Counted from the stretch's first letter, positions 20,366 to 29,062 are shown. The stretch: DNA of 64,000 bases from Eledone cirrhosa (GCA_964016885.1 OZ024741.1:131440001-131504000); one strand, 5' to 3'. Made by a program: numbers and translations. The notes: generated from the sequence alone by a model not told the origin.

Positions 20366-22385
20366 CTAAGCCTTACGTGCCGGAAATGACATGTTCAGCT
20401 TCCAGTAACCCGGTCCTAACCTACGCGTTTTATCTAGGTCGACCGTACAGATCACAAATTTGTGATCTGAATAGGCAACCGTTTTAAAAAGTGGGCAGCC
20501 TACACTATTTCTATCTATTTTCCTAATGAAGATCCTGTCTATATACGATCTAGATGACCCCATGCGGTTGGTCCATGTCCATACTGGCACATTGGGGAAA
20601 TCTTGTCGATACCTGTCAGACAGTTGGAATTGGCTGAGTAGGTGCTTGAGGCTTTTGCACCCCCCCCCCCACTCCTATCGGCTACTCCCACACAATCCCA
20701 GCGTGCGTCTAAGATGCCATTCCAGTCCTCCGCTAACAGTAAAGGGCGAGACGTACCCAGAAAGGTCTCCAGGCGCCTAAAGATGTCCGGTCGAGCGGCC
20801 CCTGTATGGGCGTAGACGGCCAGCAGTCTAAAGGCACCGCCTTCGCTACTACTCACATCCAAGACCACCAACTTACCGTCCGAATCCCGGTAGATCGACC
20901 TTACCTCGAGATCCAGTCCTTTCCTAAACAGCACTGCCACCCCACCTCCCATTCCCGGCCTGCTAACAGATGCGAAGATCTGATAGTCGTCGAAAATGGG
21001 GGCTAGTGCGCGCGTGTCGGAAATTCTGGTCTCGCTGACGGCAATCACACCCATTTGCAGCGACCTGAGGTCGTTGAGCAGGCGACCCTGCTTCCAGGGT
21101 GACCCCAGGCCGCGAACATTTAAACTTCCTACTCTTAATATGGCCATGTTGGCAAGCTAAAAGAGAGAGGGGAGATTTACTTACCTCCCGGGGTCTTGTG
21201 AAGGTCGGGTGGTTCGACCTCCATGGTTGGTGGGGTTTCTTTTGGGAACCCCTTTAACAGTCTCGATGTGGGTTTCACATTCGGGGTTCCCACGTCTTGA
21301 GGAAAGCTCTCTCGAATTTCTTTGAAGGAATCGAGTGACATTCGGACCAGAAGCAAATCTTCTGGCACGCAAAATCTGCTCATTTCAAAAATCTCCCCCT
21401 CTGTTTGAATGTCCTCGCTTCGTGCTAAGAGGGCCATCAGTTTATCGTTGGCTCTTCTGACAAGCACGAAGTTTTTAACATTTTGTTGGTGTGGTCTCAT
21501 TTGTTTTCGTTTTGGTGACTGTGGTGGTGATGCTTTTGGTGGTGTTGTTTCGGGTATGTCTATGTTTGTTGTAGGTGTGGTGTCTGCAATTTCAGGTATT
21601 TGTGTTTTTATTTGTACTTGTGTTTGTTGAGGTTGTTTGCGTTTCGGGGATTGTGGGGGTGGTGTCGATGTTTCTGTTGGTGCTGATGTTATTGGGGAAG
21701 TGTTTGCGTTAGTGGTGTCTGTATTTTTTGTTGTGTTTGTTTTTGTGTTTTTTGGGGCTTTTTTTTTTTGGTGAGTTTTCTCTGGTTTTTTTTTGCACTT
21801 TTGGGTTTTCCTTCATCTTCGCTGCTGGAAGACAAAGGGTCTGTTGCTGTGAGTGTCACTGTGTCTGTGTATGCGTTTATTGTTTTGTCTATGTGTATAA
21901 TAGAGAGGGGTAGGGGGAGTGGGAGAGCTTTCCTCGTTTTCCTCTTGGATTGGTTTCGGTGTTGGTGGTGGTCCGGCTGTTTTTGATGTTGGTGTCCGTG
22001 TCATTGTTGGTGTTGTTTTTGGTGGTGGTGGTGCAGCTTTCCGCGCTGACACTGGCGTTGGCAACAAAGGAGGTTTGCGATCCCCTGCATGTTTGGGCTG
22101 TGGGCAGAAGGCTTTCAGATGCGTTGCTTCTTCGCAGACGAAGCAGTGTGGCCTTCTTCCTCAGTGATTAGTTGGATTGTTGTCCCGTCCTGCAGGCGGG
22201 CAAAATCCTGGATGTTGTTCATGTCCTCCGGTTTCATTTGGAGAAGAATCTCCAAATTCATTCCGGACCAGTCTTCTCTCTCTGTCCTTTTGATATCCAG
22301 GAGGGTAGTGAATGTCCCCTCCTCGATTACGCATCCCAGCAGCCACCATATGTTCATTCCTGGTGGGATGCTGGGAATGCAGCCA
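20366..22385 (-). mobile_element. L1/Tx1-clade element, family 2 fragment (part of ORF1 + APE)
   Basis: 20539-21147 SLNVRGL..SET..VYA..DWN; 20366-20590 IDRIF, SDHK, YWKLN; paralogous to 58096-58824. Confidence 0.85.
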
Positions 22386-25300
22386 GGCAGGCAAACGAGC
22401 CAGTGGGAAATGAAGGTGAAGAGGTTGAGAGAACGGAGGAACCATCCGAAGCAGACAATGATCTGAATGCTGAAATAAATAATACCTGGAACAAAGATAC
22501 GGCCATTGAGGAGATGAATGCTGACGGGCTAGGACAGATTTGGTTGATATCCTAAACTTAGTGGTAGATGAAATGAACAATGATAGTGGGAAACCTATGA
22601 ACCTAAGATTTGTAGACAGGAAAAAGTTAAAAGAAACAACAGCTAAGGTAAACAAAGTCATCCCATACCTTGAGGCGAGGAACCTTCACCAATGCAACAA
22701 TATCCCCAAAGCAACAGCAAATGCAGTGAGGATATTACTTGGCATAAAAACGAGAGGAAACAACAAAGAAGAAAGATCAGAACCTTGGTGGAAGAAACGA
22801 CTGAATGGTCAAATCAGGGAAATGAAAAAAAATGACATTGCAAAGCTTGAGTCCCTACTGAATGGGACACTACACAACATAGACAATAAAAGTAGACTGG
22901 AAATAAAGTACAAAACTAGGAGGAAAAAGCTAAATATTATCATAGAGGAACTGAAGCAACGCATTGTAGCAAAGAGTGCAAAGATTAGGCGGTACGAGAG
23001 CAGAGTCAGTCAGTATAGACAGAACCGCATGTTTGACAACAGCCAGAAGATGTTGTTTGAGCAGCTTGAGGGGAAAGAAAGAGGCAACGACTTGATCCCT
23101 GAGGCGGAACAGACTAAGACATTCTGGAGAGGAATATGGGAGCAGGATGTTGAACATAATGGTCAGGCAGTGTGGATTGAGACAGTACAAAAGGAGACTA
23201 GTGAACAAGCACACCAACAAACTGATTTAAGTATCACAGTTGAAACTCTTAAAGGGCAGGCCAGAAAACTAACCAACTGGAAATCACCAGACCCAGATGG
23301 TATGCAGGGGTATTGGATTAAAAATATAACATCCCTCCACCCGAAACTGACAACCATGTTCAATGACTGCTTGATGTCGGGTGAGGTACCAGAGTGGTTG
23401 ACAAAGGGTACTACAGGCCTGGTAATGAAAGACCGAATCAAGGGTAATGATGTTACCAACTATAGACCTATCACATGTCTATCCGTAATGTGGAAACTGT
23501 TAACAAGCATTGTGTCTGAGGAAATCTACCATCACCTCCACACAAACAACTTGTTGCCGGACGAACAGAAAGGATGCCGAAAGAAGTCCCGTGATACAAG
23601 TTACTTATTGATAAGATGGTAATGAGGAATTGCAAGAGGAGACACACTGGTCTTGCCATGGGATGGATAGACTACAAAAAGGCATTCGACATGGAACCTC
23701 ATTCTTGGATAACCAAAAGCCTAGAGATCTTCAAGGTGGCAGATAGCATCAGACAGTTGTTGAGCAAAAGTATGAAGTCCTGGGAAACAGAATTAACATC
23801 GGGTGGAGAATCCTTGGGAGGCGTGAAGATCAAGAGAGGTATCTTCCAGGGAGATAGTCTGTCCCCTCTGTTGTTTGTCCTTGCCCTGATACTCCTGACC
23901 ATTATACTGCGAAAAGTGAGAGCAGGATACAAGATGGGAAAAGGAGAGCTTACCATCAACCACCTCCTCTTGATGGACGATCTTAAACTCTTTGGGAAGA
24001 GTGAAAAGGAGTTGAATGTACTTGTTAACACTGTCCGTATTTTCAGCAGTGATATATGTATGAAATTTGGTATTAGTAAGTGTGGAGTCCTAGTGATGTA
24101 GAGGGGTAAATTGAGCAGAAGCAACGGAATCCAGGTACCAACAGTTGAGATGATAAAGGAAATTGACACTGATGAAGGATACAAATATTTAGGTGTTCTG
24201 GAGGCAGATGACATCAAGAACAAAAAAAATAAAGGAATTGATAAGATCTGAGTACATTAGGAGAGTAAGGAGCGTATTAAAATCACGCCTAAATAGTAGG
24301 AATGTCATAAGTGCATTGAATTCCCGAGCTGTGTCTATTATTAGGTAGAGTGCGGGAATTCTGAAATAGAATGTTGCTGAATAAAAAGAAATGGATAGGA
24401 AGACTAGGAAGCTATTGACTATCTACAACAGGTTCCACAAGAGGAGTGATGTCGATAGAGTCTACTTAAAGAGATCTGAAGGTGGAAGAGGTCTTATCAG
24501 CATAGAGGACTGTGTTCAGATGGAGACAAACAACCTGCACAAATATGTGACTGACAGTAGGGAGCCAATGCTCAGAATTGTACTGAAGGAGAAACAACAG
24601 ACCAGGGGATGTCCAAGGAGGAAATAACCACAAGCAGGAAGAGCAACCTTCATGAAAAATCCCTTCATAGTACCTTCTTTGAGAAAACTGAATTTAGAGA
24701 TCCAAAGACATGGAACTGGTTAAAAAGAGGAGACCTTAAAAAGGCTACAGAAGGCATGATAATGGCTGCGCAAGAGGAAGCCCTCAGAACGAAGTGGCTG
24801 AAACACCATATTTACAAGGAGGAGGCTAGCTCACTGAGTAGGATCTGTGGAGAGAGAGAGAGGAGACTCTGGCTCACATTGTATCCGAGTGTAAACACCT
24901 AGCACAGACTCACCATAAAGGCTGGAGACATGATGTGATAGGCAGGGTGATCCACTGGCACCTATGCAAAGTAAACAATTTACCACATTCTGAGAAGTGG
25001 TATGAGCATAAGCCAGAGTCGGTGATAGAAAACGATCAGGTGAAGGTGCTATGGGATTTTAGGATACAGACGGATAAGAAATTAGAACACAACAGGCCTG
25101 ACCTAGTGGTTTTGGACAAGGAAAAAAGATCGTGCCTGATTGTAGATGTAGCCTGCCAATTTGAGACGAGAGAAAGGAGAGGGAGAAAATAACCGATACC
25201 AGGATTTAAAGTGAGAGGTAAAAAGGATTTGGAACTGCCATGAAGTCAGAGTCGTCCCGATTGTCATAGGCGCACTAGATACTATCTCAAAGAGTTTCCA

Positions 25301-28088: not shown

Positions 28089-28354
28089 TTTCTTTATTGG
28101 CCACAATGGCTGACATCAAGAAAAAACATTACAGACGGCACCAGACGGTACAGGGCGGTACGATGTGCGTTTTGTGCGTGTAAATATTGTTATTATTTAT
28201 ATAAGAAAAGAAAAAAAAAGACATAGAAACATATATATATATAAACAATAAAAATGAAAATTGAAACAATGAAAAATTCTCGAATAGGGGGGAAAACTCC
28301 GAGGGTTACTCGTGGCGAAAACCACACAAAAGACCACGGCCACCCTGACCACCA
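28089..28354 (-). mobile_element. Tx1-clade 3' UTR fragment (divergent variant)
   Basis: TTTCTTTATT..CCACAA start and CCCTGACCACCA end, homologous to 25585-25800. Confidence 0.7.
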
Positions 28355-29062
28355 CAAAAAATTACCAAGCCAACATGATAAAAAATGGATGCAACCCATT
28401 ACGCTGTGTATGTAAAAATCAACCAGAGACCATTGATCATATAATTTCAATGTGCAGTCCTATAGCTCCAACCGAATACCTAAACAGGCATGACAGAGCT
28501 GCACAATACATACATTGGATAATGTGTAAGCATTTTGACCTGCGCCATCTAAAGAATTGGTGGGAGCATCAACCACCTCCCATACTTGAAAAAGATCACA
28601 TCTCAATATTGTGGAACTTTAGCATCCAAACAGACCGAAAAATAGATGCAAATAGACCTGATATAATACTGAAGGATTTTAAAAAGAGGATAATTGATAT
28701 GTCCGTTCCAATAGACAAGAATGTATCTCTAAAAACACTTGAAAAATTGAGCAAGTATAAGGACCTGGAGATAGAAATTGGAAAAATGTGGAAATTGAGA
28801 ACTAAAACAATACCAGTGGTTGTAAGCGCTCTAGGAATGATACCTAAGGGGTCTAATGATTACTTATCGCAAATCCCAGGAAACCCGCGTATAGGAGAAA
28901 TACAAAAGATAGTACTAATGGGAACTGTCCATATACTAAGGAAGATTCTGTCAATATAAGTACATCACAAGTCTAAACACCTAAAGATGCATGTGTGTGT
29001 ATGTATGTTCTTTCTTGTGACTTGGTGATAACTCGTATGAACATAAAGATTAATGTAACTAT
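28354..29062 (+). mobile_element. R4/Dong-like subfamily A, 3' fragment
   Basis: KNYQAN..RHD..NRPDII..LRKILSI and 3' UTR matching 34607-35367. Confidence 0.9.

Follow-up and report, generated by a model that had tools for sequence, protein, structure and literature searches.

Here, we describe three places in a 64,000-nucleotide (nt) stretch of the Eledone cirrhosa genome (GCA_964016885.1 OZ024741.1:131440001-131504000) at which long interspersed nuclear elements (LINEs) of two unrelated classes, Tx1-type on the minus strand and Dong on the plus strand, are joined directly front to front. The stretch, referred to below as the window, is part of a 3.0-Gb genome, and the joins (J1, J2, and J3) sit in a 9-kb stack of retroelements split by TAA-type tracts. 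All three are real contacts between a Tx1-type element and a Dong element, and direct joins of this kind are a recurrent class, amounting to about one fifth of head-to-head pairs. Our tentative reading, held at close to even chances, is that each join arose from two separate insertions in one microsatellite, the later of which lost the remaining repeat when its 5' end was joined. This reading stands slightly ahead of heterologous twin priming, which is neither shown nor refuted.

Junctions and partners

Break points were set by comparing each side of each join with copies in the genome (best 39 other matches per query); tracts in the window were called with Tandem Repeats Finder, domains were assigned with Pfam, and protein matches were found with tblastn. 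At J1, the Tx1-type side ends at 22380-22382 and Dong starts at about 22383; at J2, the Tx1 side ends at 26550 and Dong starts at 26551-26553; at J3, the Tx1 side ends at 28353/28354 and Dong starts at 28354, with one A shared. No more than 2 bases are unassigned at any of the three, and a TAA/TTA repeat, sought at each, was found at none. Each join is unique rather than a duplicated composite, as no junction is bridged by any of the best 39 other matches to its queries. The 5' truncation of both partners is genuine, since at every one of the six break points longer copies, from the window or from other loci, carry on without interruption. At J2 and J3, the two 3' ends are complete and face outward into tracts at 25540-25585, 26935-27003, 28054-28089, and 29061-29086, and the subfamilies differ between the three joins.

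A first-pass annotation of the window had reported direct Tx1(-)/Dong(+) head-to-head joins free of microsatellite sequence, the last two with intact, outward-facing 3' ends and each with different subfamilies. The joins were confirmed (22380-22383, 26550/26551, and 28353/28354), and comparisons within the window and with other copies bore out the rest. It had also taken the Tx1 partner at J1 for a 5'-truncated minus-strand element, which it is, but this piece is cut on its 3' side as well and is an internal ORF1/endonuclease fragment, with no reverse transcriptase (RT), 3' end, or tail.

The J1 fragment (here Tx1up; 20347..22382, minus strand) holds part of ORF1 and the apurinic/apyrimidinic endonuclease (APE), is cut at both ends, and meets Dong at its 5' side. 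Copies at sampled loci L040-L042 and L182-L210 match it with 91-95% identity over about 2 kb and run past both ends. Its left neighbor (18762-20346) had no match among the loci compared up to that point. The left border of the fragment falls inside a 9-nt inverted repeat (TCAACAATT, 6 nt, AATTGTTGA; 20330-20356), and the flank there holds CAACAATTATCA twice. The Dong partner, a Dong1 copy (22383..25482, plus strand), is 5'-truncated with an intact 3' end, contains RVT_1, and shares 34-51% amino acid identity with the Dong2 open reading frame (ORF); longer copies (L025, L073, and L119) extend upstream of about 22383.

A (TAC)20(TAA)15 tract (25483..25585) forms both the tail of this Dong1 copy and the tail side of the next Tx1 copy, Tx1A (25586..26550, minus strand). 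Tx1A is a 965-bp 3' part, intact at its 3' end (25586) and 5'-truncated at 26550 (J2), which encodes the C-terminal part of the RT and zf-RVT; window copies at 35366-36355, 60799-61787, and 51191-52189, 84-91% identical to it, all run past the break. Its partner, a further Dong1 copy (26551..26934, plus strand), is 5'-truncated at J2, retains its 3' end ahead of an (AAT)23 tract (26935..27003), and has an internal deletion joined at 26797-26800, as 26553-26800 matches 22979-23239 and 26797-27006 matches 25349-25558. That deletion measures about 2.1 kb, and its two sides share 4 nt at the joint (26797-26800). At J3, the minus-strand partner is the 264-bp 3' end of a variant subfamily, Tx1var (28090..28353; 3' end intact, 5'-truncated at J3), fully covered at 92-96% identity by the best 39 other copies; the 29 Tx1var copies examined run beyond the 264 bp, save those that are themselves truncated. 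The plus-strand partner belongs to the second Dong family, Dong2 (28354..29060; 5'-truncated at J3, 3' end intact), and is 89-90% identical to 7894-8664 and 34607-35387, both of which run on upstream, with 92.6% amino acid identity to the 969-amino-acid (aa) ORF of Dong2.

The Dong class has a single long ORF in which RVT_1 is the only Pfam match, with no match to Exo_endo_phos. The 969-aa open frame of Dong2 (32312-35221; RVT_1 E value, 4e-29) aligns with the solved R2 proteins 9nl3, 9dou, and 8gh6 (residues 125-841; E value, 4e-27) across the RT, CCHC motif, and restriction-like nuclease (PD-(D/E)xK type) blocks. On its own strand, the 3' end is (TAA)n, a tail present in 29/29 copies picked via an internal segment. 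At least two Dong families coexist, about 40% identical in protein. The Tx1 class has Exo_endo_phos, RVT_1, and zf-RVT (window copy 35638-39059), an RT that aligns with L1 ORF2p, and ORF1-like frames (39842-41022); its own-strand 3' end is (TTA)n, window copies adjoin ATT/TAA tracts on the TTA side, and TTA is also found upstream in 24/39 focal Tx1 copies. Both clade names are provisional, with Dong-type resting on target and domain order rather than on an RT tree. Read on opposite strands, TAA and TTA are one and the same microsatellite. Elements of the two classes that occupy one tract are therefore antiparallel to each other, and contacts between them can only be head to head or tail to tail.

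Frequency of direct joins

About 1 Mb of the same genome was sampled beyond the window. Copies were taken by their 3' ends alone for Tx1, Dong1, and Dong2 (39 each), together with 29 Tx1var copies, 29 Tx1up copies picked via an internal segment, and 29 relatives of a further Tx1 subfamily. Head-to-head pairs were scanned with clean references over all sampled loci and the window, with a gap of ≤4 nt counted as direct. The scan returned 68 Tx1-type/Dong pairs, of which 16 were direct (3 in the window), 4 had 5-9 nt between the heads, 38 had a TAA/TTA tract, and 10 had other sequence, mostly a tract plus extra bases. Once the last set of relatives had been added, these classes stood at 16, 4, 39, and 12, respectively. 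Outside the window, 13/65 head-to-head pairs were direct; two of the 13 are weak (L146, with perhaps a repeat of ≤9 nt, and L170, a 51-nt match at the edge of the locus), and one direct join (L105) missed by the scan was found by eye. Within the window, three of the four head-to-head pairs are direct, and the fourth (49129/49973) retains a 32-bp ATT repeat plus 811 bp; direct joins are thus enriched in the window, but the window was picked for them.

One direct join between the short interspersed nuclear element (SINE)-like element described below and Dong1 occurs twice on the same chromosome (L061 and L062, 3.5 kb apart) as part of a 3.5-kb tandem duplication, with 8 nt shared at the junction. 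Two tracts between heads are of mixed polarity (coordinates in the Dong sense): L063 (~4846-4912) has (AAT)7 followed directly by (ATT)8, and L050 (~3969-3988) has TTATTA followed by ATAATAATAA. The strand switch in these two tracts fits no simple insertion model.

Origin of the joins

Damage is not spread evenly over the junctions. A separate scan flagged 79 tail-to-tail contacts, in 60 of which both 3' ends are intact; inspection by eye of the other 19 left 18 artifacts, where the reference carried a SINE fragment plus tract and so gave false Dong segments, and 1 real case (L041). Tail-to-tail junctions were therefore truncated in 1/61 cases versus 12/54 direct joins at head-to-head junctions (curated pairs outside the window; Fisher P = 6e-4). 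In addition, of the Dong1 copies selected through a segment lying 112-332 bp from the 3' terminus, 29/29 had kept that terminus and the TAA tail (two of them are one tandem duplicate). The first-pass annotation had named later deletion between neighbors as the alternative to its own proposal. In such a scenario, two elements already in place on either side of a tract would have been deprived of it, and of their own 5' portions, by a deletion that had nothing to do with their insertion. Such deletions do occur at a low rate, as indicated by the L041 pair (7503-8049 and 8047-9027), the sole real tail-to-tail contact with both 3' ends cut and directly joined, and the missing 3' side at J1 requires some extra event. 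Random deletion should nonetheless strike both junction types alike, and the tail-to-tail versus head-to-head counts together with the intact control 3' ends led us to reject it as the main cause and to regard it as very improbable for these joins. Since damage is found at head-to-head and hardly at tail-to-tail junctions, tract loss appears tied to the making of the 5' junction.

We then sorted the 5' neighbors of 78 focal Dong copies picked by their 3' ends (5' ends reference-based, classes assigned by eye); as L061 and L062 are one duplicated junction, 77 copies are independent. With an inverted Tx1-type element upstream, 5 junctions were direct (L045, L054, L059, L061=L062, and L105) and 23 had a tract. 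With unique DNA upstream, 2 were direct (L049 and L111, whose flanks match nothing) and about 15 had a tract; with a same-strand Dong upstream, 3 were direct, the upstream 3' end being lost (L056, L086, and L104), and 17 retained the tail. Rates of tract loss for these neighbors (18%, 12%, and 15%) did not differ significantly (P = 0.69 and 1.0; small numbers and by-eye classes). From neighbor frequency and the pooled rate multiplied together, about 4 of the 77 independent copies should be in direct head-to-head joins, and 5 were observed. Among 39 focal Tx1 5' ends, 11 had no tract, 24 had one, and 4 were internally rearranged; several Tx1up copies also lack a tract at the 5' end. In both classes, then, 5' junctions without a tract are common whatever lies upstream, and 3' junctions are almost never damaged. 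The comparison with other neighbors and orientations that the first-pass annotation had suggested, made here in the sampled loci, thus confirmed a recurrent direct class and the sparing of tail-to-tail junctions, but the rate proved independent of the neighbor. In the three same-strand joins (L104, ~2722; L086, ~3668; L056, ~2734; Dong sense), a Dong that has lost its 3' end is followed immediately by a 5'-truncated member of another Dong family, which may reflect either template switching or deletion on insertion.

That tract loss does not depend on the neighbor fits ordinary target loss at the 5' junction of the later insertion. In the sequence of events that we favor, a first element would insert in a TAA/TTA microsatellite, each insertion leaving a new tract, and a second element of the opposite strand would later insert in the same tract. 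The later insertion would then lose the rest of the tract, and perhaps part of its neighbor, as its 5' end was attached, through target deletion or microhomology joining of the kind known for L1 and R2. R2 insertion is accompanied by target loss and variable 5' junctions, and target deletions made on L1 insertion were reportedly described by Gilbert et al. in 2002. Both the order of the two insertions at each join and the loss of the tract during 5' attachment, rather than before or after it, are inferred. On our analysis, sequential insertion would need nothing beyond the 5'-junction target loss known for L1 and R2. As in those elements, target DNA here is lost only 5' of the new copy, irrespective of the upstream sequence, and 3' junctions stay intact; unlike in them, the lost target is the rest of a microsatellite, and the neighbor is often an element of the complementary class. 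The direct pair at L042, whose halves look unequal in age (0.025 versus 0.043; z = -2.3), also counts for sequential insertion. Were it correct, the joins would be a by-product of known 5'-junction behavior.

Several observations weigh against sequential insertion. In three direct joins (L042, L079, and L085), the Tx1-type partner reaches precisely to its full-length 5' terminus, which argues against deletion into the neighbor and is compatible with loss of nothing but the tract or with second cDNAs that ran to completion. As the Tx1 fragment at J1 lacks a 3' end, this reading would also require another event to the left of the fragment. The rate for unique-DNA neighbors comes from 2 of about 17 junctions in by-eye classes. 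Lastly, the ages of the halves (dated by private differences versus the 20 nearest relatives of each half) agree in direct pairs as well as equal ages predict (root mean square [rms] z, 1.00-1.12; n = 11-15), and a mixture fit puts the coeval share of direct pairs at 1, a share of 0 being worse by 1.5-2.8 log units.

Tract-separated pairs, in comparison, are overdispersed (rms z, 1.74-2.18; n = 22-39). The permutation P value for direct versus tract age spread is 0.012 without exclusions, 0.057 with both halves below 0.08, and 0.08-0.09 when close relatives are required, and a rank test of the same spread was not significant (P = 0.11-0.34); many direct partners are short, which lowers power, and the result shifts with the filters. 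For J1 to J3, terminal branches were taken from trees with relatives: 0.031 for the Tx1-type half and 0.032 for Dong at J1, 0.045 (965 bp) and 0.037 plus 0.016 (248 plus 138 bp; about 0.029 for the Dong half as a whole) at J2, and 0.039 (264 bp) and 0.021 (707 bp) at J3. In none of these three joins do the halves differ in age beyond error. Overall, the age data lean towards coeval halves in direct pairs. An age of 0.12 for the Tx1 partner at L045 was discarded as an artifact of too distant relatives and became 0.033 once 29 relatives were included.

Coeval halves are what the proposal of the first-pass annotation, heterologous twin priming, would produce. Under this explanation, which we consider possible but lean against, one double-strand break in a TAA/TTA tract has both ends used at once by two different RNAs. 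Dong RNA would be copied from the bottom-strand end (TTA-3'), which would pair with its (UAA)n tail, and Tx1-type RNA from the top-strand end (TAA-3'), which would pair with its (UUA)n tail or, for J1, with an internal site; ligation of the cDNAs head to head would then leave no repeat between them. Geometry and tail complementarity follow directly from the sequence. The equal branch lengths at J1, the agreement within error at J2 and J3, and the coeval-like behavior of direct pairs as a class all speak for it, and so do the full-length SINE or Tx1up 5' termini that lie exactly at three direct joins (L042, L079, and L085).

Self 5' inversions further indicate that priming of a second end on RNA occurs in these families. 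They were found in 2/29 Tx1up copies (L184, ~2002-2714; L188, ~1803-3076), in Tx1 (L179, 115-1023), in Dong2 (L110, ~3730-3780), and in a young Dong1 subfamily, Dong1b (first 490 bases of the reverse complement of L025, against L119 5-346), with the target repeat bounding the inverted arms. The fragment at J1 is shaped like such an inverted arm, being internal and bounded on its 3' side by a repeat-like stretch, and resembles the L184 and L188 arms; as its partner also looks coeval, J1 stands out among the joins as the strongest individual case for twin priming. At L180 (595-757, Tx1 sense), a reversed SINE is joined head to head with a 5'-truncated Tx1var, though both use the TTA strand. The tail side of that SINE has only about 8 nt of repeat and then unique DNA, and the locus looks like a LINE/SINE twin-primed insertion.

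Set against this, direct joins are in no excess beside inverted Tx1 (5/28, versus 2/~17 and 3/20), and the frequency data cap the share of twin priming among them at about a quarter to a half. Twin priming would also mean that some 6% of Dong insertions recruit another RNA in trans, a higher rate than that at which Dong inverts itself (1 in 78 focal copies, L110, plus one nonfocal copy in L025). The age signal, for which the short partners give little power, changes with the filters and does not reach significance in the rank test, and the L042 halves look unequal. At J1 itself, the plus-strand sequence of the left flank is of TTA type, a polarity that does not suit a Dong target. Of the original proposal, then, the geometry stood and the halves were compatible with equal age, but the expected excess beside inverted Tx1 did not appear, and sequential insertion fits the counts unaided. 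A difference in age between the halves had been put forward as the observation that would speak against the proposal; with the halves of J1 to J3 within error and no excess difference for direct pairs as a class, that comparison did not count against it. Regular co-insertion, at a single break, of two autonomous LINEs that belong to unrelated clades and use different endonucleases (APE and restriction-like), accounting for up to about half of direct joins, is conceivable, at distinctly less than even chances.

Two further routes are more improbable still: the Dong RT could have switched template onto a transcript carrying antisense Tx1, or the joins could be assembly errors. The same-strand Dong1/Dong2 chimeras (L086 and L104) and the TTA run on the Dong side of the mixed-polarity tract in L063 are compatible with template switching, but templates that carry antisense sequence are an added assumption. 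As for assembly, contigs from four public runs over 25400-29300 are just 60-110 bp long in the repeats, where their summed depth is very high, and loose ends at 26550 and 28354 correspond to other copies running on; against either route, at least 12 independent direct joins lie on different chromosomes of a chromosome-scale assembly.

In L1 twin priming, reportedly described by Ostertag and Kazazian in 2001, an inverted 5' arm is joined to a direct arm. The joins reported here are similar in that an inverted 5' arm lies head to head with a 5'-truncated direct arm, with 0-2 unassigned bases or 1 shared base. They differ in that both L1 arms come from one RNA, as in classical twin priming, whereas here the arms are two autonomous LINEs of different clades with different endonucleases; moreover, at J2 and J3, the inverted arm retains its own 3' end and tail, and the microsatellite hides any target-site duplication. 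Use of a second RNA has been proposed for L1, with antisense tRNA, 5S rRNA, and mRNA chimeras attributed to twin priming (PMC13174262). The likeness is that a second, different RNA would be copied from the other end of the break in the opposite orientation; the difference is that the partner there is a cellular RNA and the events are rare, while here it is a retrotransposon whose tail is complementary to the free end, in about one fifth of head-to-head pairs.

If twin priming were true, these joins would be the first case of two different autonomous retrotransposons using both ends of one break. Tail-to-target complementarity, besides the element's own protein, would then decide which RNA is copied at the second DNA end, with a bearing on second-strand synthesis and 5' joining in non-LTR (non-long terminal repeat) elements. 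Pairs of this kind number in the thousands in young families of this genome (92-100% identity), which makes the question testable there.

Dong elements (Bombyx Dong, DongAg, and DongBg) are specific for TAA microsatellites (PMC3812793). The E. cirrhosa elements resemble these in combining an RT and a restriction-like endonuclease in one ORF and in having (TAA)n-tailed copies that form stacks within TAA tracts, but here at least two families share the tracts with a Tx1-type LINE and a SINE on the opposite strand. Neither Dong/Tx1 fusions nor a Tx1-type element that uses the TTA strand of a Dong target turned up in a literature search. The setting is unusual in that a single microsatellite serves two LINE clades and a SINE, which use it from opposite strands, with every insertion renewing the target of the other class.

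Other features of the window

Between J2 and J3 lies a third Dong1 copy (27004..28053, plus strand), 5'-truncated with a tract upstream and thus an ordinary tandem, 86% identical to 24413-25482 and followed by an imperfect (AAT)12 tract (28054..28089). Downstream of J3, an (ATA)9 tract (29061..29086) is followed by a SINE-like element of about 176 bp (29087..29262, minus strand) with a TTA tail. This SINE-like element, whose (TTA)n tail follows the same strand rule as Tx1, recurs beside TAA tracts at many loci, the tail lying on the TTA side in every case. Besides 29087-29262, window copies are found on the minus strand at 9420-9596 and 16722-16868 and on the plus strand at 2027-2177, 9987-10166, 44189-44338, and 52190-52340. 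Because it has the strand rule of Tx1 and abounds beside TAA tracts, it is probably mobilized by Tx1.

A longer Dong2 copy (32538-35365, plus strand) carries an open frame of about 893 aa, and the 3' ends of Dong2 are 97-100% identical genome-wide, which makes this family very young. Near full-length Tx1 copies are located at 35388-~41230 (minus strand) and 56176-61759 (plus strand), one of them with TTA repeat on both flanks. Runs of (TAC)n lie directly beside (TAA)n at Dong 3' ends (25483-25541, 32045-32174, and 53529-53589) and may be variant tails or products of tail slippage.

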